Shown here piece by piece: positions 1-61,781 of a DNA stretch of 64,000 nucleotides. Source of the DNA: Patescibacteria group bacterium. Lineage in GTDB: Bacteria; Patescibacteriota; Microgenomatia; UBA8517. The position numbers were made by a program, and so were the translations under genes. The DNA lies in contig JADFPI010000001.1 of NCBI GenBank assembly GCA_022562395.1, positions 1,456 to 65,455 on the forward strand, read 5' to 3'. Each line of letters opens with the position of its first letter. Positions within the stretch are counted from its first letter, which is position 1. Under the pieces are notes generated by a model. It was not told the origin of the DNA, ran no database searches, and saw nothing but the letters and a program-made list of their open reading frames with translations.

Positions 1-130
1 TTGATAATCCATATGGAGGATCGGCAAAGATCATATCGAAAGATTCCTTTCTAAATTCGGAAAGTAGTTTTAAAGAATTGCCTAAATAGAGTTTGAAGTT
101 TGGCTTTTCGTAGTAAGACTTAATCCTCAT
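1..130 (-). CDS. DNA methyltransferase, N-terminal fragment (gene runs off window start)
   Basis: Minus-strand ATG at 130-128. Translation MRIKSYYEKPNFKLYLGNSLKLLSEFRKESFDMIFADPPYGLS carries the DPPY motif IV of N6-adenine/N4-cytosine DNA MTases. Not in the ORF track because it is partial. Confidence 0.55.
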   Translation of the reverse strand, partial: MRIKSYYEKPNFKLYLGNSLKLLSEFRKESFDMIFADPPYGLS

Positions 131-331
131 GATCGGGTTTTATTTGGTATATTCATTTGACTATATGTAAGCCTTCTTGTCAAGGGTATTTAAATATATC
201 AAAGTGGGATGCATCCTGAAAGAAGAAATTCTGGCCGTATTATATCAGGTTTTGCGGCAGCAAAAAATGATCGGTGATTAATGATTTGTGGCTAGTCTGT
301 GGATTTTGGAGAGCAAAGGAGAAAAAGATTT

Positions 332-535
332 TTACTTCTTCTTACCCTGAGATTTTCGAATGGGCCAATCCACAATAGTAATTTTCCGTCCCCGAAGTTT
401 GACCACAACCTTTTGCCTCTCGCGCCAGCGGAGTTTGCGCATTATTTCAATCGGTAGGGTCAACCCCAAGCTTCGTCCGCCGCCCATTCTTGTTAGTTTC
501 CTTATATTTTTTTCGCTTAATTTCCTTCTGGCCAT
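332..535 (-). CDS. AbrB/MazE/SpoVT-family small DNA-binding protein (copy 1)
   Basis: 67 aa. RKLTRMGGGRSLGLTLPIEIMRKLRW...KVVVKLRGRKITI fits the swapped-hairpin AbrB/MazE pattern. Duplicated at 1773..1976. Confidence 0.6.
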   Translation of the reverse strand: MARRKLSEKNIRKLTRMGGGRSLGLTLPIEIMRKLRWRERQKVVVKLRGRKITIVDWPIRKSQGKKK

Positions 536-564
536 TTTAACTACTGAGTTAACTACTGAATTAA

Positions 565-584
565 CTACTGAATTAATTCAGTAG
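565..584. promoter_or_regulatory. Perfect 20-bp palindrome CTACTGAATTAATTCAGTAG in the 5' leader of the AbrB-like gene (candidate operator)
   Basis: Exact palindrome, flanked by partial AACTACTGA(A/G)TT tandem units at 539-574. Also found at 1982-2001 and 61545-61564. Confidence 0.6.
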
Positions 585-604
585 CAACTTTCTAATCTGT
601 CCAT

Positions 605-613
605 ATTTTAGCA
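605..613 (-). promoter_or_regulatory. Extended -10 promoter (rc TGCTAAAAT) for AbrB-like copy 1
   Basis: Plus strand reads attttagca; one of seven copies of the motif in the 1-5.4 kb islet. Confidence 0.5.
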
Positions 614-638
614 GAATTGGAGATTAGAGGTTATTTTT

Positions 639-965
639 CTAGGAATTCTGGGCCAAATGGGCCGCGACTTGTGCAACATTAATTGCGTTTACTCCCCAAC
701 GTATTAGATTCCCAATTCTAATAGCTTTTTCGTAAGAAAATGACAACCGGCTACCGGATGCCTTACTCAACGCATATGATCCAATTAACAATGCCGTAAC
801 TCCTGTACTAACTATGGCAGCTGTGTAAAATTCACCACCTTCAGCATATTTGTCTGCGGCAAAGCCTATTTCCTTAAAGCCCAGGCTTGAGTGGGCATAG
901 GTTGAAGTTACAACGTCCACTAAGTTAGCGGCAAAAAAGGAGGTCATTAACGCTTTCTCTTTCAT
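639..965 (-). CDS. hypothetical protein (108 aa)
   Basis: ORF with TGCTAAAAT -10 (979-987) about 14 nt upstream of the ATG and no SD. No recognisable family. Confidence 0.45.
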   Translation of the reverse strand: MKEKALMTSFFAANLVDVVTSTYAHSSLGFKEIGFAADKYAEGGEFYTAAIVSTGVTALLIGSYALSKASGSRLSFSYEKAIRIGNLIRWGVNAINVAQVAAHLAQNS

Positions 966-977
966 AATAATTGGTGG

Positions 978-1051
978 TATTTTAGCACGAAATTAAATTT
1001 TGTGATGTGGATATGAAGTCAAGAGTGTCGAGAGGTCGGACCTCTAAATTG
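978..1051 (-). repeat. Conserved ~74-bp promoter-proximal element (copy a), containing the TGCTAAAAT -10 and an AGAGGTC-G-GACCTCT hairpin
   Basis: About 90% identical to 5337..5411. The hairpin lies at 1031-1045. Confidence 0.7.
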
Positions 1052-1156
1052 TTTCAGATAGAAATAAAATATAATATGTGTTACTATATTAACATCACTA
1101 GGGAGAAACGAACGCTTGACTACGTGTCATGTCGCAACGCCTCCCACTTTTTTTGG

Positions 1157-1690
1157 TTAAATTTTAAGCTTCTCTCTCTCAAATTCTATAAAAGTTTTAT
1201 ATTTATGAAATCGCTTCAATAAAGATGACTCTGATTTTGAATTAGGAATTACGATACGAAGTAACTTTTTCTTTTTCTCTAAGTATTCGTGCAAACAATA
1301 AAAATCGCCGTCTCCTGATACTATTACTGCTCTATCATATTTCGGATACTGAATTGTTGCCGCATGTAAAACCAGCTCTGCGTCAACATTTCCTTTAGGT
1401 TTGCCCAAATTATCCTTGACTGTTGGTTTGAATACCAATTCATAACCGTAAGATTTTAAACGCCCGTAAAGCCTTCGGTTCTGTTTGATATAGCCTATGA
1501 AAAGGAAGGCTTTTTTGACACGAAATTTATCAGCTAAATATATCCTGAATTTTTTGAAATCTAGCTTCCACCCTCTATAAATTAACCTTTTGTTCCTATA
1601 AATATTCTTACTGGTGCCGAGGTTCAAATTTTGGCTATCGATGAAGGCATATATTGCTGGTCGTTTTTTGTTTTTGGAAAGTTTCGCCAT
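1157..1690 (-). CDS. NYN/LabA-like (PIN-related) domain protein, putative RNase
   Basis: IYAFIDSQNL, VDAELVLHAA and VIVSGDGDF motifs typical of NYN/LabA (DUF88). Leaderless with TGCTAAAAT -10 at 1700-1708. The 23-mer cattctggccgtattttagcacg is identical to the one before the protease gene at 5326-5348. Confidence 0.65.
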   Translation of the reverse strand: MAKLSKNKKRPAIYAFIDSQNLNLGTSKNIYRNKRLIYRGWKLDFKKFRIYLADKFRVKKAFLFIGYIKQNRRLYGRLKSYGYELVFKPTVKDNLGKPKGNVDAELVLHAATIQYPKYDRAVIVSGDGDFYCLHEYLEKKKKLLRIVIPNSKSESSLLKRFHKYKTFIEFEREKLKI

Positions 1691-1772
1691 TCTGGCCGTA
1701 TTTTAGCACGCTAAACACTTACGCGTAACGTGGCGAGCCACTTTCTTGAAGCTAAGCAGAGTAAAAAGATTT

Positions 1773-1976
1773 TTACTTCTTCTTGCCCTGAGATTTCCGA
1801 ACGGGCCAATCCACGATAGTAATTTTCTTCCCCCGAAGCCGGACTACCACCTTTTGCCTCTCGCGCCAGCGAAGTTTGCGCATAATTTCAATCGGTAGGG
1901 TTAAGCCGAGGCTTCGTCCGCCGCCCATTCTTGTTAGTTTCCTTATATTTTTTTCGCTTAATTTTCTTCTGGCCAT
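1773..1976 (-). CDS. AbrB/MazE/SpoVT-family small DNA-binding protein (copy 2)
   Basis: 67 aa, 63/67 identical to the 332..535 product. Confidence 0.6.
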   Translation of the reverse strand: MARRKLSEKNIRKLTRMGGGRSLGLTLPIEIMRKLRWRERQKVVVRLRGKKITIVDWPVRKSQGKKK

Positions 1977-1981
1977 TTTAA

Positions 1982-2001
1982 CTACTGAATTAATTCAGTA
2001 G
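1982..2001. promoter_or_regulatory. Palindrome CTACTGAATTAATTCAGTAG (copy 2 operator candidate)
   Basis: Exact palindrome in the leader of 1773..1976, followed by an extra TTAATTCAGTAG half-site. Confidence 0.6.
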
Positions 2002-2058
2002 TTAATTCAGTAGCAATTTTCTAATCTGCCTGTATTTTAGCACAGGCGAAGAATTTGG

Positions 2059-2604
2059 TTATTTTTTGATACTCACTTCAAGTGCGTCGGAGCCGACATC
2101 GTGTGTTGTGCTTTTATATTTCCCGCTTTCGCGCACATATTCCAGGAAGTCGCCCATGTCTTCTTTAAATATTTTTACATTATCCGCAACCACAACCGCT
2201 CCGTTTTGTAAGTTTCCTTCCGCCAGTTTTAAGTAATCCAAATAGTCTTCTTTCGCCGCATCAATGAACATAAAATCAAATGTAGCTGAAAGTGTTGGAA
2301 TCAGCTCTTTTGCGTAGCCTACCTTTATTTCAACTCTATCTTCAAACCCTGCTTTTTTAATATTCTCCCGGGCAATTTCTGCATTTTCCGGATCAACTTC
2401 AATAGTGACTATTTTTGTATTTGCACCAACCGCTTCAGCCATTAGTATTGCAGAATACCCCACATACGTCCCAATCTCTAAAATCCTTTTTGGCTTTTTG
2501 TCTTTAACCACATCCACAAGGACTTTACCTTTTTTAGGTCCGACAAGCATAATATGCCCCTCTGACTCAATTTTTTCTATTACTTTTTTTGCTGCGCTAC
2601 TCAT
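2059..2604 (-). CDS. class I SAM-dependent O-methyltransferase (caffeoyl-CoA OMT / YrrM-TrmR-like family)
   Basis: ILEIGTYVGYSAI is the SAM-binding motif I; FDFMFIDAAKEDY is typical of family-3 O-MTases. A TGCTAAAAT -10 at 2666-2674 leaves an about 60-nt leader. Confidence 0.75.
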   Translation of the reverse strand: MSSAAKKVIEKIESEGHIMLVGPKKGKVLVDVVKDKKPKRILEIGTYVGYSAILMAEAVGANTKIVTIEVDPENAEIARENIKKAGFEDRVEIKVGYAKELIPTLSATFDFMFIDAAKEDYLDYLKLAEGNLQNGAVVVADNVKIFKEDMGDFLEYVRESGKYKSTTHDVGSDALEVSIKK

Positions 2605-2700
2605 ATATTTATTACTTTCTACCGAGCTGGCAAGTTTTTCTTTGTCATACCCAAATTCTGCCCGTATTTTAGCACGGTTTTTAGGCTGAGGCGAAGGCGT

Positions 2701-2982
2701 TTAATTGAGATTTGTAGGTTTGTGTTTTAGCTCAGGAGGAAGAGAAACATTGTGGTGGTAAAGACCCATGAAAATTCTGTCGTAAACATCCGGGTCAATG
2801 CCACCAACCTCATCAACACAAGCTTCTATGTTCTTTTTCTGTTCTACTAAATACCTAGCCGCCTTTTCAACCTCTTCAGGAGAGTGTCTCCCGCGGAAAG
2901 CAATAACCCTCCAGGCTTTTTCACTGTATTGGGAGCCTTTTTTAGCAGTTTCAATCTGCTCTGGCGATAATCTTTCTCTCAT
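2701..2982 (-). CDS. hypothetical protein (93 aa)
   Basis: ORF with TGCTAAAAT -10 (2989-2997) 6 nt before the ATG, so leaderless. Confidence 0.45.
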   Translation of the reverse strand: MRERLSPEQIETAKKGSQYSEKAWRVIAFRGRHSPEEVEKAARYLVEQKKNIEACVDEVGGIDPDVYDRIFMGLYHHNVSLPPELKHKPTNLN

Positions 2983-3133
2983 ATGTATATTTTAGCACGG
3001 AAAGTAAAGCTCGACCGTGGACGAATCTGACAGAAAAATCGAGGGATAATTTACAAGGCAATTGGCCGATTTTTGTGTCTAACTAATATTTAGGCCTTTT
3101 AATGGCAATGATTGTTATCTGCATCTTTCTCTG

Positions 3134-3277
3134 TTACTCAACTGTGTACGGGGGCAACTTATATTTCCCCTTCTCCAGCGCTTTCAAATCCCTGTCGGAC
3201 AGATTAAAAGTTTCTTTCAAATATTTATCCTGCTTCTGCAAAGTAGTAGATTGAACTACTGGCTTTGAATCTTTCAT
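3134..3277 (-). CDS. possible small ORF (47 aa; MKDSKPVVQSTTLQKQDKYLKETFNLSDRDLKALEKGKYKLPPYTVE)
   Basis: Found by manual translation of the minus strand; below the ORF-track size cut-off. No clear SD or promoter. Confidence 0.2.
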   Translation of the reverse strand: MKDSKPVVQSTTLQKQDKYLKETFNLSDRDLKALEKGKYKLPPYTVE

Positions 3278-3350: not shown

Positions 3351-3773
3351 CTAGTGTATCTTTCCGTTAGTGGGAAAGAGTCTTTCGAGTTTGCATTTCT
3401 CTCTATTGCTTAACCCCGGCATTGTTAAATGTATAAAAAATTGTTTCCAGTTTCTTCCGGTAGCTATCAATACTCGTTCGTCGTTTATTATTTTTATTCC
3501 TTCCCACTTATCTTCGTCTTTTGTTATTATCAGCAAATTTTCCCGCCCGTAAATGTTTCTGTAATCCAAACTATATCTTTCTTCTTCTCCGCGGTAGGAT
3601 TCTATTTCCGGTTCGTAAAGCGCGGTTCCGGAAATATCCACTCCTTTCACCTTTCTGTAACTTACAAATAGGACGTTAAAAGGAAAATCATTAAGTTCAG
3701 GCCTATCCTCGATATTTAAATTGTGGGGTATAAACGCGAAACGGTTTTTATATATAAATGTTTCAGCTATCAT
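3351..3773 (-). CDS. hypothetical protein (140 aa) under SAM-I riboswitch control
   Basis: ORF with a strong SD (AGGGAGGTGA) immediately after the riboswitch terminator. No recognisable family. Confidence 0.55.
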   Translation of the reverse strand: MIAETFIYKNRFAFIPHNLNIEDRPELNDFPFNVLFVSYRKVKGVDISGTALYEPEIESYRGEEERYSLDYRNIYGRENLLIITKDEDKWEGIKIINDERVLIATGRNWKQFFIHLTMPGLSNREKCKLERLFPTNGKIH

Positions 3774-3824: not shown

Positions 3825-3968
3825 CAAATCTTTGCCAACAAAAAATCGGCCAAATCTTTCCCTTCCGGGCTGGACTTGGCACCGTTTTCCTTCGACTTTA
3901 CTCAGGACCGGTTGCCGGGTGGGTCATTGAGCCAGTACTCTCGCCACCACTCTTGATTTATTGCCTTA
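3799..3968 (-). promoter_or_regulatory. SAM-I (S-box) riboswitch: aptamer (about 3847-3962) plus terminator expression platform
   Basis: Minus-strand RNA matches the S-box consensus. It has AUCAAGAG, then GGUGGCGAGAG-UACUGGCUC (P2 with k-turn-like GA), AAUGACCCACCCGGCAACC, GGUGCCAAGUCC (P3), CCCGGAAGGG (P4 GGAA tetraloop) and GAAAGAUUUGG (P1 3' strand). It is preceded by a TGGTATAAT promoter and followed by a terminator and SD. No ORF lies inside. Confidence 0.85.
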
Positions 3969-3974
3969 CGACTA

Positions 3975-3983
3975 CATTATACC
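3975..3983 (-). promoter_or_regulatory. Extended -10 (rc TGGTATAAT) driving the SAM-I riboswitch transcript
   Basis: Plus strand reads attatacca. The TSS is predicted about 7 nt downstream. Confidence 0.55.
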
Positions 3984-4002
3984 ACACCTTTTTGAGGCTG
4001 AA

Positions 4003-4048
4003 TTTGCCAGAAGTCCTTCGGCAGGCTCAGGATTAAAATCCCTCGGCA
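4003..4048. repeat. Two 21-bp direct repeats (tccttcggcaggctcaggatt / tccctcggcacactcaggatt) separated by aaaa
   Basis: 18/21 identical. They lie between the protease stop and the riboswitch promoter. Confidence 0.6.
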
Positions 4049-4051
4049 CAC

Positions 4052-5329
4052 TCAGGATTGGTCTGCATAGAACCATTCCCAGGAAGGTTCTTCTACCTCC
4101 TTAATCTTGCTTCGATTCATTTTATAAACCCCATCCTCTAAAACTGTCTGCCAGGTACCTTCATAGTAATGATAATCTACTTCTTCGTCATTCCAGTTTT
4201 TTGTTGAAAATTTAACAAAAGCAGTATCGTCGGTATTTTCGTGGGGCTCGGAAATATAAATCTCAACGTCAAGAATATCGGTGAACCTATTTGTCCACTC
4301 CTCAAAATTCGTTTTTTCAAGGTATTTACTAGATAAAAGCGCAAATCCATCCTCCATCCTCCGTGCCTTTAAATAAGTATAAAAAGCTCTAACCGCCTCT
4401 TCCGGGGAAACCGACGGATCTACTTCGATTTTAGTGATTTCGCTGTCGGTAAATTCAGCCGATAGCCCTTCTATCCAATTGGCAGGAATAAATAAAGATA
4501 AACCCGCCAGACCAAGGGTATTCACTCCTACAACTTTACCGCATATATCCACCAGAGGGCCCCCACTCATTCCTTCAACAAGATTTATATCTGTTTGGAT
4601 ATAAGCGGTGCCGGCCGATTTTTGCTCTCTGAACGAGACGTACTCACCTTTTTGGATAGTTGCTTCACCGGCTAAATCTGTTCCCAAGGCGTAACCGGCA
4701 GCAATAAGCTTTTCTCTGTCGTAAAAAACAAGTGGGTCCATCATCTCAAGGACTAAATCCGGATAGTTTTCTTTCGTAAATAAAATGGCAAGGTCATAAT
4801 ATTGGGTACCGGTAATTGTTTCCGGTGTAGCGAAGCTGCCGTCTGAAAAGATTATTTTCGGACTCGGTTCGCCGGCAATGACGTGGAAGTTGGTAAGAAC
4901 CTGATTCTCGGATATAAAAAAGCCCGACCCTTCGGAGTAGCCGCCGACTATCCTTACTACCGAATCTTTAAGTTTTTGGTCCACCCCGTATCCGCACAAG
5001 AATTTAGAGTAGTGTCCGTAGTTTGTTTGGATGTAGTCAACAATGACAAAGAGCGATGCAAAGATATAGATAACCAGTGCCGTTATAAATATCGACTTCA
5101 GAAAGTTTTTCAAACTTCTAAAAGGAAAGGTTATAGTTTCAAAAAATATTTTTATTAATGAAATTAGGGTTTTTATAAAAAACTTAATAATGTAGTAAGT
5201 TGAGTAAGTGATTGTTTTTACTGGGAAAAGATATAGGGGAAAAAGAAGCCGTTTGACGTAATTTTTGAATCTTAAATAAAGCTCGGAGATTCTTTTCTTA
5301 ACGTTTCGCTTAATCCTACCCACCTTCAT
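4052..5329 (-). CDS. membrane-anchored trypsin-like serine protease (S1C/HtrA-like)
   Basis: N-terminal TM segment. Catalytic triad contexts are TNFHVI (His), YDLAIL (Asp) and GMSGGPLV (Ser). Leaderless with TGCTAAAAT at 5339-5347. Confidence 0.8.
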   Translation of the reverse strand: MKVGRIKRNVKKRISELYLRFKNYVKRLLFPLYLFPVKTITYSTYYIIKFFIKTLISLIKIFFETITFPFRSLKNFLKSIFITALVIYIFASLFVIVDYIQTNYGHYSKFLCGYGVDQKLKDSVVRIVGGYSEGSGFFISENQVLTNFHVIAGEPSPKIIFSDGSFATPETITGTQYYDLAILFTKENYPDLVLEMMDPLVFYDREKLIAAGYALGTDLAGEATIQKGEYVSFREQKSAGTAYIQTDINLVEGMSGGPLVDICGKVVGVNTLGLAGLSLFIPANWIEGLSAEFTDSEITKIEVDPSVSPEEAVRAFYTYLKARRMEDGFALLSSKYLEKTNFEEWTNRFTDILDVEIYISEPHENTDDTAFVKFSTKNWNDEEVDYHYYEGTWQTVLEDGVYKMNRSKIKEVEEPSWEWFYADQS

Positions 5330-5336
5330 TCTGGCC

Positions 5337-5411
5337 GTATTTTAGCACGAAATTAGATTTTGTAATGTGGAGATGAAGTCAAGAGTGTCAAGAGGTCGGA
5401 CCTCTACATTG
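5337..5411 (-). repeat. Conserved ~74-bp promoter-proximal element (copy b)
   Basis: About 90% identical to 978..1051. The hairpin agaggtcggacctct lies at 5391-5405. Confidence 0.7.
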
Positions 5412-5468: not shown

Positions 5469-5726
5469 ATGGCAACGATAATAACCGTTACCAGTAAAGG
5501 ACAAGTGACGCTTCCTAAGAAAATTCGAGAGACCCTTGGTATTAAAAAGGGAGACCGTATTATTGCCAGGACCAAGGGTAAAAAAATAACCCTCGAGCCC
5601 GCAGGACGTGGCATTCTTGATTTTGCTGGAAAACTTGGAAAGCTTAAGGTGCCGAAAGGAAAAACAGTAGATGACCTTATACATGAGGCAACCACAGAAG
5701 TCCTTAGTAAAAATGCTCTCGGGTAA
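5469..5726 (+). CDS. vapB: VapB-like antitoxin (AbrB/SpoVT swapped-hairpin domain)
   Basis: ITVTSKGQVTLPKKIRETLGIKKGDRI motif. Overlaps the downstream PIN gene by 14 nt. Confidence 0.75.
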   Translation: MATIITVTSKGQVTLPKKIRETLGIKKGDRIIARTKGKKITLEPAGRGILDFAGKLGKLKVPKGKTVDDLIHEATTEVLSKNALG

Positions 5727-6120
5727 GATATTTGTCGACACGAACATCTTCATATACCTTCTCTATGAAGTAGATGATAAAAAACATTCTGCGTGTATCG
5801 ATTTACTTAAAAAGGCCAGGGAAGGTGAAGTAAGATTATGGACAACTGAATGGGTTATCGCTGAGCTTATATGGTTTTTACATAGAAGAAAGAAGGTTTG
5901 GAGTGAAATTGAGCTAATAGTAAATAGTATGTTGACTACTAAAGGATTGGAGATAAGAAACAAGAAGTGGCTTTTAGAGATATTGGTACCGTGCAAGAAG
6001 GTAACAGACTTTTTTGATTCTGTAAACATGTCGATTTTATTATCCGAAGGGGTGAATAGAGGCTATTCTTATGACAGGGGGCTTGATAGGTGGAGAAGCT
6101 TCAAAAGGATGGAACCGTAA
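5713..6120 (+). CDS. vapC: VapC toxin (PIN-domain ribonuclease)
   Basis: MLSGKIFVDTNIFIY holds the first PIN Asp; WVIAEL holds the Glu. Start chosen at the internal ATG 5713, since track ORF 5671 overlaps vapB. Confidence 0.75.
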   Translation: MLSGKIFVDTNIFIYLLYEVDDKKHSACIDLLKKAREGEVRLWTTEWVIAELIWFLHRRKKVWSEIELIVNSMLTTKGLEIRNKKWLLEILVPCKKVTDFFDSVNMSILLSEGVNRGYSYDRGLDRWRSFKRMEP

Positions 6121-60745: not shown

Positions 60746-61033
60746 ATGCAGAAGGTGATTGTACAGGTTCCAATGACTAAAAAATTAAGAGACGCCGCAA
60801 CTCGCGCTGCGAAAGATTCAGGTTTCTCGTCTTTACAGGAAGTAATTCGTTTGTTTACCACCAAGCTTGCCAAGAAGCAGGTTTCGATTGATATTTCTGG
60901 AGTGGAATATTTGACTCCCCAGGAAGATGCTATTTTGGAAAAGAGGTATAAAGAATTTCTAGCCGAGAAGAAGAAGGGTAAAACTTATAAAGCAACCTCT
61001 GCCAAGGAGATGATAAGGCAACTGACTTCTTAA
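60746..61033 (+). CDS. RelB/DinJ-like antitoxin (putative)
   Basis: 95-aa basic protein immediately upstream of a RelE/YafQ-family toxin; assigned by gene context. Confidence 0.5.
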   Translation: MQKVIVQVPMTKKLRDAATRAAKDSGFSSLQEVIRLFTTKLAKKQVSIDISGVEYLTPQEDAILEKRYKEFLAEKKKGKTYKATSAKEMIRQLTS

Positions 61034-61036
61034 TAG

Positions 61037-61312
61037 ATGGCCACAATCGAATACGACAGGAGGTTTAAGAAGCACTTCAAAACAAGAATTTTTCTCAATA
61101 GAAAACTTGCAAAAAGATATGAAGAACGACTGGATTTATTTTTGAAAGATAGACGTAATTCCATATTAAATGACCATAAGCTTGTTGGGAGGCTAGAAGG
61201 CACGAAAGCTTTTAATATTACCGGGGATATTAGAGTTATTTATGTCGAAGCATGAGACACAAGCTATGCTTATGTCGAAGTAGACAAGAACCACTTTATT
61301 TTTCTAGATATC
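61037..61312 (+). pseudogene. RelE/YafQ-family toxin interrupted by an in-frame 30-bp tandem duplication carrying a TGA stop (track ORF 61037..61255)
   Basis: HKLVGRLEGTKAFNITGDIRVIYVEA then stop. Removing 61251-61280 restores ...VIYVEVDKNHFIFLDIGTHPQIYGM, the expected RelE/YafQ C-terminus. The duplicated ttatgtcgaag is visible at 61240-61250 and 61270-61280. Confidence 0.6.
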
Positions 61313-61396
61313 GGCACCCATCCTCAAATTTATGGTATGTAGCTAGGGGGGAATTTCGCTTCAATTTAAACACAGGGTTTGGTAAAATACAACAAG

Positions 61397-61467
61397 CGGG
61401 GAGTAGTTTAGTGGTAGAATGTGCGCATGGGGTGCGTGCGGCCCGAGTTCGATTCTCGGCTCCCCGA
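61397..61467 (+). tRNA. tRNA-Pro (anticodon GGG)
   Basis: Manual fold gives acceptor CGGGGAG/CTCCCCG, anticodon loop AT-GGG-GT with U33 and G37, T-arm CCGAG-TTCGATT-CTCGG, discriminator A and no encoded CCA. The D-stem is weak (GU pairs). Confidence 0.65.
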
Positions 61468-61489
61468 CACTATAGGATTTTGATATTCC

Positions 61490-61773
61490 AGTTGTTGACT
61501 TAGGGTTATCTTTGATGACAATAATGATTTCACTTTGTAAATTTGCTACTGAATTAATTCAGTAGTTAAGACAACTGCATCAAGCCGAATTCCCCCCGCC
61601 AGCAACTGCGTAGCTTTGAGCGGGGGGCGGGTGAGGCGTAGTCTCCGATAAAATCGGGGTAGCAATGCGGCGTCTAGAAGCCTCTCGGCAAAGCCGAGTT
61701 AATCCTTCAGGATATTGAAGAAGTCCCGAGCCTCTGTGCTCGGGGAGGCTTCACTTCAGTAGTTAAAATGGCC
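61490..61773 (+). repeat. Degenerate third AbrB-like cassette on the plus strand: promoter, palindrome (61545-61564), a ~190-bp hairpin-rich insert (61565-61754), then ttcagtagttaaaATGGCCAGCCCCGACTAA (5-codon remnant)
   Basis: Matches the 5' leader and first codons of copies 1 and 2. The ttcagtagttaa on each side of the insert looks like a 12-bp duplication. Confidence 0.6.
61565..61754. mobile_element. ~190-bp hairpin-rich insertion (MITE-like or structured ncRNA candidate)
   Basis: Stems CCCCCCGC/GCGGGGGG, CCGAT-aaa-ATCGG, CTCGGC-aaa-GCCGAG, CTTCA-ggatat-TGAAG and CCCGAGC-ctctgt-GCTCGGG. Flanked by a ttcagtagttaa direct repeat. No ORF. Confidence 0.4.
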
Positions 61774-61781
61774 AGCCCCGA

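Follow-up and report, generated by a model that had tools for sequence, protein, structure and literature searches.

The question raised by the left end of contig JADFPI010000001.1 of a Patescibacteria group bacterium (GenBank assembly GCA_022562395.1) is whether two similar cassettes of about 300 bp, each with a perfect palindrome in front of a gene for a 67-amino acid (aa) protein, are regulatory modules, antitoxin genes, pieces of a mobile element, or RNA signals. The cassettes lie within a 64,000 nt stretch of the contig (hereafter, the window), and an earlier reading of this DNA (the original prediction) had described them as a duplicated AbrB/MazE-like pair with a composite-transposon-like layout. 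Little is known about gene regulation in Patescibacteria, and these bacteria are widely assumed to have few transcription factors. From the comparisons presented below, a narrow answer is quite probable, in which both copies are autoregulated modules consisting of a promoter, an operator and a gene for an AbrB/MazE-fold regulator, that is, an ordinary autoregulated regulator of the AbrB type and not a transposon.

The two open reading frames (ORFs) are present on the minus strand, as had been predicted, and both are preceded by the −10 box TGCTAAAAT and an array of 12-bp units, CTACTGAATTAA. The features of the two cassettes are as follows:

332 to 535, minus strand: coding sequence (CDS) of copy 1, predicted 67-aa AbrB/MazE-fold protein (ORF, Pfam PF04014, predicted topology, Foldseek)
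541 to 584, minus strand: putative operator array of copy 1, the palindrome (565-584) with units at 553-564 and 541-552 (1 mismatch)
604 to 613, minus strand: extended −10 box of copy 1, TGCTAAAATA, at the left edge of the block kept in six related cassettes
1773 to 1976, minus strand: CDS of copy 2, 67 aa, three conservative differences from copy 1 (ORF)
1982 to 2013, minus strand: putative operator array of copy 2, the palindrome (1982-2001) with a unit at 2002-2013
2033 to 2042, minus strand: extended −10 box of copy 2, TGCTAAAATA

An ungapped duplicated block of 231 nt (322-552 versus 1763-1993) shows 91% identity, and the similarity continues to the promoters at about 615 and 2044. The predicted duplication is thus borne out, with the proposed identity of about 93% being slightly high, as the two CDS are 90.7% identical at the DNA level (19 of 204 positions differ). 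Thirteen of the 19 differences sit in codons with an unchanged amino acid, and the only residue changes are K46R, R50K and I59V, all conservative, indicating that both copies are maintained genes under purifying selection. The perfect 20-bp palindrome predicted in each leader, CTACTGAATTAATTCAGTAG, was found at 565-584 and 1982-2001, and also at 61546-61565 (see later). These three are the sole perfect 20-bp palindromes in the 64 kb, and any such palindrome was produced in only one of 50 shuffles. In gene orientation the array of copy 1 reads F-R-R-R* (one forward and three reverse units, the last with one mismatch) and stops 6 nt short of the ATG, and that of copy 2 reads F-F-R; both start about 20 nt downstream of the −10 box. 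Tandem AACTACTGA(A/G)TT half-sites, predicted in each leader, are therefore, when read on the plus strand, true of copy 1 but not of copy 2. A block of 32 nt is inverted between the copies, 1982-2013 being the exact reverse complement of 553-584.

A swapped-hairpin, AbrB/MazE-like fold had been proposed for the encoded protein, and near-threshold Pfam scores, the predicted topology and Foldseek agree in pointing to it. The scores of the window copies against PF04014 (MazE_antitoxin) were 22.8 (copy 1, E 8.9e-5) and 23.8 bits with a cut-off of 24.7, which is passed by the homologues P0038 (30.3), L037 (29.2) and P0071 (26.6 bits). The AlphaFold model, a single chain with 31 family sequences as input, has a β-β-α-β-β topology, with strands at residues 13-17, 22-26, 43-48 and 51-56 and a helix at 29-34. 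The top 12 Foldseek matches were AbrB, MazE, SpoVT and VapB (AbrB-type) with probabilities of 0.9–0.98, their E-values being weak because the protein is small; C68 and C56 of Sulfolobus elements and Sso7c4 of Sulfolobus were also among the matches, and the top Protein Data Bank (PDB) profile match was the AbrB N-domain (E = 0.2). In the family alignment the N-terminal arm is basic and conserved (MARRKLxEKNIRK) and the core is invariant, with variation in the β1-β2 loop. The fold spans residues 13-57 of the typical 59-aa protein, with no C-terminal partner-binding region, and the window proteins have an extra, basic tail (PIRKSQGKKK). Neither the 67-aa protein nor the products of the NYN gene and 108-aa ORF that lie between the copies could be assigned to an informative family with NCBIfam, PHROGs or PADLOC.

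Relatives of the protein number 595, mostly of 57–60 aa, and come from genomes named as Jorgensenbacteria, Parcubacteria, Woesebacteria, Falkowbacteria or 'Patescibacteria group', with 261 loci in species-representative genomes. Among 1.84 billion representatives, 474 clusters (50% identity) were recovered by a profile that did not spill into the wider AbrB superfamily, and the family is confined to Patescibacteria-type genomes. Homology of the alanyl-tRNA synthetase (AlaRS, P0269) encoded in the window likewise points to a Patescibacteria group bacterium, with Microgenomates-like relatives; identical proteins are on record neither for this AlaRS nor for the two window copies. No relatives of the 67-aa protein were found in 2.9 million viral contigs, and a search of viral contigs for the palindrome gave one unrelated match. 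Searching the literature on AbrB in Patescibacteria or the Candidate Phyla Radiation returned no papers; the regulator is of a known kind, and its family, which is minimal, modular and diversified in specificity, is one for which no published description was found.

A connection between the protein and its putative operator is that the repeats change with the protein. Most homologues examined have two to four repeats with 12-bp spacing directly upstream; an 8-mer present at least four times within 120 nt upstream was found at 37 of 55 loci, versus 21 of 139 control stretches, and the repeat spacings peak at 6 and 12 nt. The sequence of the loop and that of the repeat pair as follows (RMGGGRS-loop proteins being designated TACTGAAT-type and VGGTS-loop proteins ATACGTAT-type):

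loop ...RMGGG(R/K)S...: repeat TACTGAATTAATTCAGTA
loop ...VGGTS...: repeat AATACGTATTTA (three times)
loop ...G(K/Q)xS...: repeat ATTACGTAATTA
loop ...RTGxG(K/R)S...: repeat AACTCnnGAGTT or GCTCCGGAGC
loop ...MGRAGxS...: repeat GTTAAGTAAC

Every repeat group has an AT-rich centre, TTAA or TTTAAA. Protein identity is correlated with shared upstream 7-mers (Mantel rho 0.16, with none of 1000 permutations as high) and shows no correlation with downstream 7-mers (198 of 1000 permutations). Among the 34 distinct upstream regions of the TACTGAAT group, the unit order is F-R-R in 12 and F-R in 9. Two classes of array can be distinguished by position. In the first, which includes the window copies and loci L001, L131, L133 and L115, the array follows the −10 box and ends 6–11 nt before the ATG. 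In the second, which comprises at least seven relatives (such as L007, L009, L012, L016, L019 and L031), it precedes a −10-like hexamer that is 6–7 nt from the ATG, so that the array would escape transcription and the element must act as DNA and not purely as RNA. Since the repeat sequence changes with that of the protein, a DNA operator and autoregulation are supported, and the predicted control of the gene through an operator of its own stands to this extent, the support being comparative.

Several observations weigh against this reading. The window proteins fall just below the Pfam threshold, the AlphaFold model is only of moderate quality (predicted local distance difference test score, 65), and the calling of promoters and transcription starts rests on motif conservation only. 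The genes downstream of the two copies (NYN and methyltransferase, see later) have promoter-like motifs of their own, which makes control of cargo in the window uncertain. An exact-match metagenome scan for the palindrome recovered 40 loci, with all sites intergenic, and about 33 of these have no AbrB-like gene within 260 nt (only about 7 do), so that the palindrome may act without the protein. At 14 of the 40 sites the palindrome is extended by at least five further complementary bp, and the varying flanks with retained pairing are the signature of a hairpin; many of the sites that lack an AbrB-like gene are terminator-like hairpins of this kind. The stand-alone palindromes are often found just after genes or between convergent genes, five of them at tRNA 3' ends, and they may be protein targets, cassette relics or independent terminators.

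If the two copies are autoregulated modules, the protein would be a minimal swapped-hairpin regulator, with a basic N-terminal arm and a single β-β-α-β-β domain, that dimerises; to our knowledge, every solved member of the AbrB/MazE fold is a dimer. The dimer would bind the 12-bp-spaced units (core CTGAA-TTAA-TTCAG), from the palindrome outward along the neighbouring direct units. With the array placed downstream of the −10 box and close to the ATG, the bound dimer would obstruct transcription at initiation or early in elongation, so that the gene would regulate itself negatively, and any gene read through from the cassette promoter would be co-controlled. The third site, at 61546, would also be occupied by the same protein. 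With Patescibacteria modules placed before unrelated genes, often R-M (restriction-modification) or toxin-like ones, the cassette would probably be a portable controller. What the sequences themselves show is the predicted fold, the family, the build of the repeats, their change with the protein and the lack of a conserved partner; that the protein binds DNA, dimerises, represses (rather than activates) and serves as a controller we infer from them.

The alternative that survives best is a mobile or recombination element, in which the arrays would be recombination sites, or the cassettes of about 300 bp would be homology handles by which bracketed genes are captured, duplicated or deleted, a weaker form of the composite element in the original prediction. 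Cassettes sharing 87–92% DNA identity are known from five settings: one follows a MOSC gene, one precedes a LexA-like gene, one adjoins ftsK, one comes after an NYN gene and a 154-aa gene, and the last setting is that of the two window copies. The block kept across six cassettes runs from the −10 box through the array and CDS to about 15 nt beyond the stop codon. Direct pairs bracket cargo both in the window and, independently, in L036, where two cassettes of a different repeat type, TTACGTAA (3930-4187 and 5487-5744), with 95% identity over 258 nt are directly oriented around a gene for a 377-aa Fic-family protein (HPFLDGNGRTGR motif), a layout as in the window. Extra arrays, marking decayed cassettes or flanking cargo, occur in L051, L056, L087 and L115; those of L051, L056 and L115 speak for a mobile element, as do the window's third site and the inversion of the 32-nt block between the window copies. 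Duplicated tRNA 3' ends are also found beside arrays, 65–150 nt downstream of the gene, in L007 (tRNA-Asp, 425-464 and 590-630) and L067 (tRNA-Pro, 211-227 and 293-308), and each looks like an old integration scar.

Against such an element, no transposase or integrase was found in the parts of the window scanned for one, namely the cassette region and the surroundings of the third site. An alignment of six cassettes revealed neither terminal inverted repeats nor target-site duplications at their edges, and the sequences outside the pair (to the left of about 322 and to the right of about 2044) have no short direct repeat in common. The composite-transposon-like arrangement of the original prediction is not upheld, as the copies are direct repeats that encode only the 67-aa protein, without inverted termini, transposase or target-site duplication. 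At 90.7% identity the window copies have diverged by 9% and are no closer to each other than to cassettes on other contigs (87–92%), which rules out a recent local duplication. The absence of relatives from the viral contigs is a further point against mobility, and ordinary recombination can yield recurrence in variable regions and is compatible with the role of a regulator. Overall, a mobile element is quite unlikely as the explanation for these cassettes. They are found well beyond this locus, and their occurrence in many contexts, along with the pair bracketing the Fic gene in L036, points to some cassette turnover, plausibly by recombination at these modules.

It had also been proposed that further copies should be sought, especially next to tRNA genes. 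A truncated third copy, absent from the original prediction, is indeed present beside tRNA-Pro near the other end of the window. A link to tRNAs is visible for the stand-alone palindromes, but for the gene it is weak, as about 6 of 60 loci have a tRNA within 500 nt, a share that does not clearly exceed chance. The features of the third copy are:

61546 to 61569, plus strand: third locus, the 20-bp palindrome and TTAA, 78 nt after tRNA-Pro(GGG) (61397-61468)
61570 to 61754, plus strand: insert of 185 nt, 58% GC, predicted to be structured, which splits the third array
61755 to 61775, plus strand: remnant TTCAGTAG-TTAAA-ATGGCCAG, equal to the last unit and the first 8 nt of the cassette CDS, after which the similarity ends

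A sigma-70-like match (TTGACT-16-GACAAT, 61495-61522) is located 23 nt before the third palindrome, compared to a 20-nt spacing in the intact cassettes. The 185-nt insert has folding z-scores of −4.0 (plus strand) and −5.5 (minus strand), contains no ORF, matches no Rfam family at gathering or permissive thresholds, and has no second copy detectable by BLAST in the window or any of the fetched loci. Given the promoter-like site and palindrome directly upstream, it could be a small RNA under cassette-type control. A duplicate of the tRNA-Pro 3' end, as would be left by integration, was sought within the window and not found, which is another point against a mobile element. Upstream of the tRNA gene, positions 60746-61345 (plus strand) have the look of a RelB/YafQ-type toxin-antitoxin pair, based on the translated sequence and the neighbours in L007 only. 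The ORF for the YafQ-type toxin is shortened by a 30-nt insertion between 11-nt direct repeats, TTATGTCGAAG (61240 and 61270), and excising the insertion gives a full-length toxin ending in ...DIGTHPQIYGM.

The genes surrounding the cassettes bear on a second alternative, that the protein is a type II or orphan antitoxin that neutralises the product of a neighbouring toxin gene, such as NYN (PIN-like), and represses the pair via the palindrome. The order in the window is copy 2, NYN, 108-aa gene, copy 1, and a gene that begins with a putative DPPY methyltransferase motif:

1 to 130, minus strand: first part of a gene resembling DNA methyltransferases (DPPY motif), which lies downstream of copy 1 and runs off the window
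639 to 965, minus strand: gene for a hypothetical protein of 108 aa, located between NYN and copy 1 and matching no family
1157 to 1690, minus strand: NYN-domain gene, 177 aa, between the copies, with the promoter-like motif TGCTAAAATA at 1699-1708
228-249, 594-615, 968-989, 1689-1710, 2023-2044, 2655-2676, 2988-2997 and 5338-5347, minus strand: TGCTAAAATA-type motif sites

The methyltransferase assignment is based on the translation, in which DPPY was read from the sequence, and on a tblastn match to L052; the 43-aa fragment had no Pfam match. This gene begins 200 nt past copy 1 and has its own TATAAT-like motif. The 64 kb contain seven exact copies of TGCTAAAATA, every one of them on the minus strand and no further in than 5.4 kb. 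In front of three genes the sequence belongs to a longer common motif, CGTGCTAAAATACGGCCAGAAT(G), and start codons lying 6–10 nt past the −10 box at the motif sites suggest leaderless mRNAs.

In favour of an antitoxin, the nearest structures are antitoxins of the AbrB/MazE fold (MazE and AbrB-type VapB), the NYN gene directly follows copy 2, and NYN genes are found near AbrB-like genes in three or four lineages: L134, L034/L063 and the L002 group each have an NYN homologue (42–87% identity to that of the window) immediately ahead of the AbrB-like gene. A different gene, of 154 aa, takes the place of the 108-aa gene in L134. The Fic gene bracketed in L036, and the presence of AbiEii, Fic and YafQ genes among the family neighbours, are also consistent with this possibility. 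Set against it, 82 nt lie between copy 2 and the NYN gene of the window, and within them NYN has a TGCTAAAATA promoter-like motif of its own, a detail absent from the original prediction; in the other lineages NYN is upstream by 180–440 nt and not in an operon with the AbrB-like gene; and PADLOC gave no match. More generally, a conserved toxin family was sought on either side of the family loci, using Pfam and the clustering of 50 downstream proteins, and none was found. Among the same-strand downstream genes, 45 of 50 were unrelated singletons, so the statement that no cognate toxin follows either copy holds in the sense that the family has no conserved partner. Diversity is just as high among the upstream genes, of which NYN is the commonest (3 of 57). 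Finally, in a 59-aa protein with its fold at residues 13-57 there is no room for a C-terminal toxin-binding tail, for which reason the protein is not filed as an antitoxin, a role that we consider very unlikely.

In 21 of 50 cases the downstream gene starts within 25 nt of the stop codon, indicating that many modules head an operon, and the cargo is very diverse by Pfam, with about 8 of 50 being R-M components. The order NYN, AbrB-like, R-M recurs with a different type of R-M component each time: L002 has a Dam-like methylase, L034 an HsdM-like methylase and L063 a ResIII helicase, and the window shows this order too, with its putative DPPY methylase. The cassette of L115 is found among defence-type genes (479-3205) encoding DUF4145 (PD-T7-4-like), ParB_N and PRTase-CE (PRTase_III-A match) proteins, and because a palindrome directly follows the TATAAT box of the DUF4145 gene, this gene is probably a second target.

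A third alternative places the function at the level of RNA, with the palindrome acting as a 5'-untranslated-region hairpin or attenuator, or as a terminator for a neighbouring gene, and the protein not being needed. Stable folds are predicted for the two leaders (−21.5 and −14.9 kcal/mol, z about −4), a terminator scan flagged 1982-2013 on the plus strand, and stand-alone copies that follow tRNA genes or separate convergent genes are 17-bp hairpins with A and T runs. On the mRNA strand, however, no U-run follows the hairpin, direct repeats with 12-bp spacing would be superfluous to it, the repeats track the protein sequence, and in the second class of array described above they lie outside the transcript, which together make an explanation purely at the RNA level highly improbable. 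Two further readings of the palindrome were rejected outright, as an integron attC-like site because no integrase is present, and as a DNA-uptake sequence because three sites per 64 kb are far too few.

Other structured or palindromic sequences were noticed in the course of this work. Four metagenome contigs (L115, 3380-3560; L096, 4161-4338; L110, 1054-1242; and L092, 3425-3512) share a conserved, GC-rich element of about 180 nt that starts with GATCATGCCTGCCCCGTATA, is 20–60 nt away from a stand-alone palindrome and has no Rfam match; among the GC-rich elements near palindromes in other loci, Rfam detected nothing beyond tRNA genes, and elsewhere a S-adenosylmethionine (SAM) riboswitch. A different, GC-rich palindrome, CTGCCTGCCGGCAGGCAG, recurs intergenically in unrelated Patescibacteria contigs (L002, 2776-2795; also L007, L021, L079, L082 and L121). 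In the window, a SAM riboswitch (RF00162, 48.9 bits) is present at 3849-3962 on the minus strand, upstream of a 140-aa ORF (3351-3773) with no family assignment. The GC skew changes sign between about 4000 and 6000, and at about 5.5 kb the genes change over from the minus to the plus strand, which may mark a replication origin or terminus.

A broader scenario can be outlined that goes beyond autoregulation of the two copies. Across the Patescibacteria, such cassettes may be plug-in control modules, with each mini AbrB-like protein having a private 12-bp code in which recognition of the TTAA centre would fall to the conserved N-terminal arm and that of the variable core to the β1-β2 loop. Modules would be recombined in front of defence or toxin-like cargo, and their operators would persist as stand-alone hairpins behind tRNA and other genes, where bound protein could be a terminator, insulator or roadblock, or the sites could be recombination handles for gene capture. 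The structured 185-nt RNA at the third site could be a non-coding RNA under the same control. This scenario is tentative and, taken in full, rather unlikely. A compact protein of about 59 aa with a sharply defined, paralogue-specific site could offer a recognition code that is readable from natural variation, and orthogonal repressor-operator pairs could be built from the family. It also marks variable, defence-rich regions (R-M, NYN, Fic, PRTase and toxin-antitoxin genes) and may show how very small genomes control genes that are newly acquired and potentially harmful.

Known systems resemble the proposed modules in different respects. AbrB, Abh and SpoVT, the swapped-hairpin transition-state regulators of Bacillus, bind DNA and also control their own genes, and their N-domains share the predicted topology and provide the top PDB matches by both profile and fold. 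AbrB differs in having a C-terminal multimerisation domain (96 aa in all) and many sites without a clear consensus, whereas the present family has 59–67 aa, a conserved basic arm and a sharply defined 12-bp repeat array, and occurs in Patescibacteria-type genomes only. MazE and AbrB-type VapB have the same fold, are small and repress their own promoters via palindromes, but their genes invariably share a transcript with that of a toxin (MazF or PIN) and the proteins end in a tail that binds the toxin; neither trait is seen here. C68 (pSSVx), C56 (pSSVi) and Sso7c4 of Sulfolobus are similarly small (about 56–68 aa) and stand alone without a partner domain; they are archaeal and carried on plasmid-virus hybrids, unlike this family, which is not found in viral contigs.

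Parallels in operator layout come from two other groups. MraZ, of the AbrB superfamily, is encoded by the first gene of its operon and binds a series of direct repeats that precede this gene at intervals of about one helical turn (PMC12957436), with the motif cited as (AAAGTGKN3)3 in PMC5282649. It consists of two fused domains, forms large oligomers and has a fixed place at the head of the cell-division (dcw) cluster, beside rsmH, whereas members of the present family have one domain (59–67 aa), variable neighbours, and a mixture of inverted and direct units. The C proteins of R-M systems, such as C.Kpn2I, are tiny autoregulators encoded at the head of R-M genes, with operators of inverted or direct repeats that overlap the promoter or act as an elongation roadblock, as for C.Kpn2I (PMC6237814). 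In the genome-reduced Mycoplasma gallisepticum, HsdC binds repeats at its own promoter and further targets that include a tRNA cluster (PMC5282649), a precedent for the stand-alone palindromes. The C proteins have an unrelated, helix-turn-helix (Xre-like) fold, and most members of the Patescibacteria family are not beside R-M genes, with about 8 of 50 sitting directly upstream of them.

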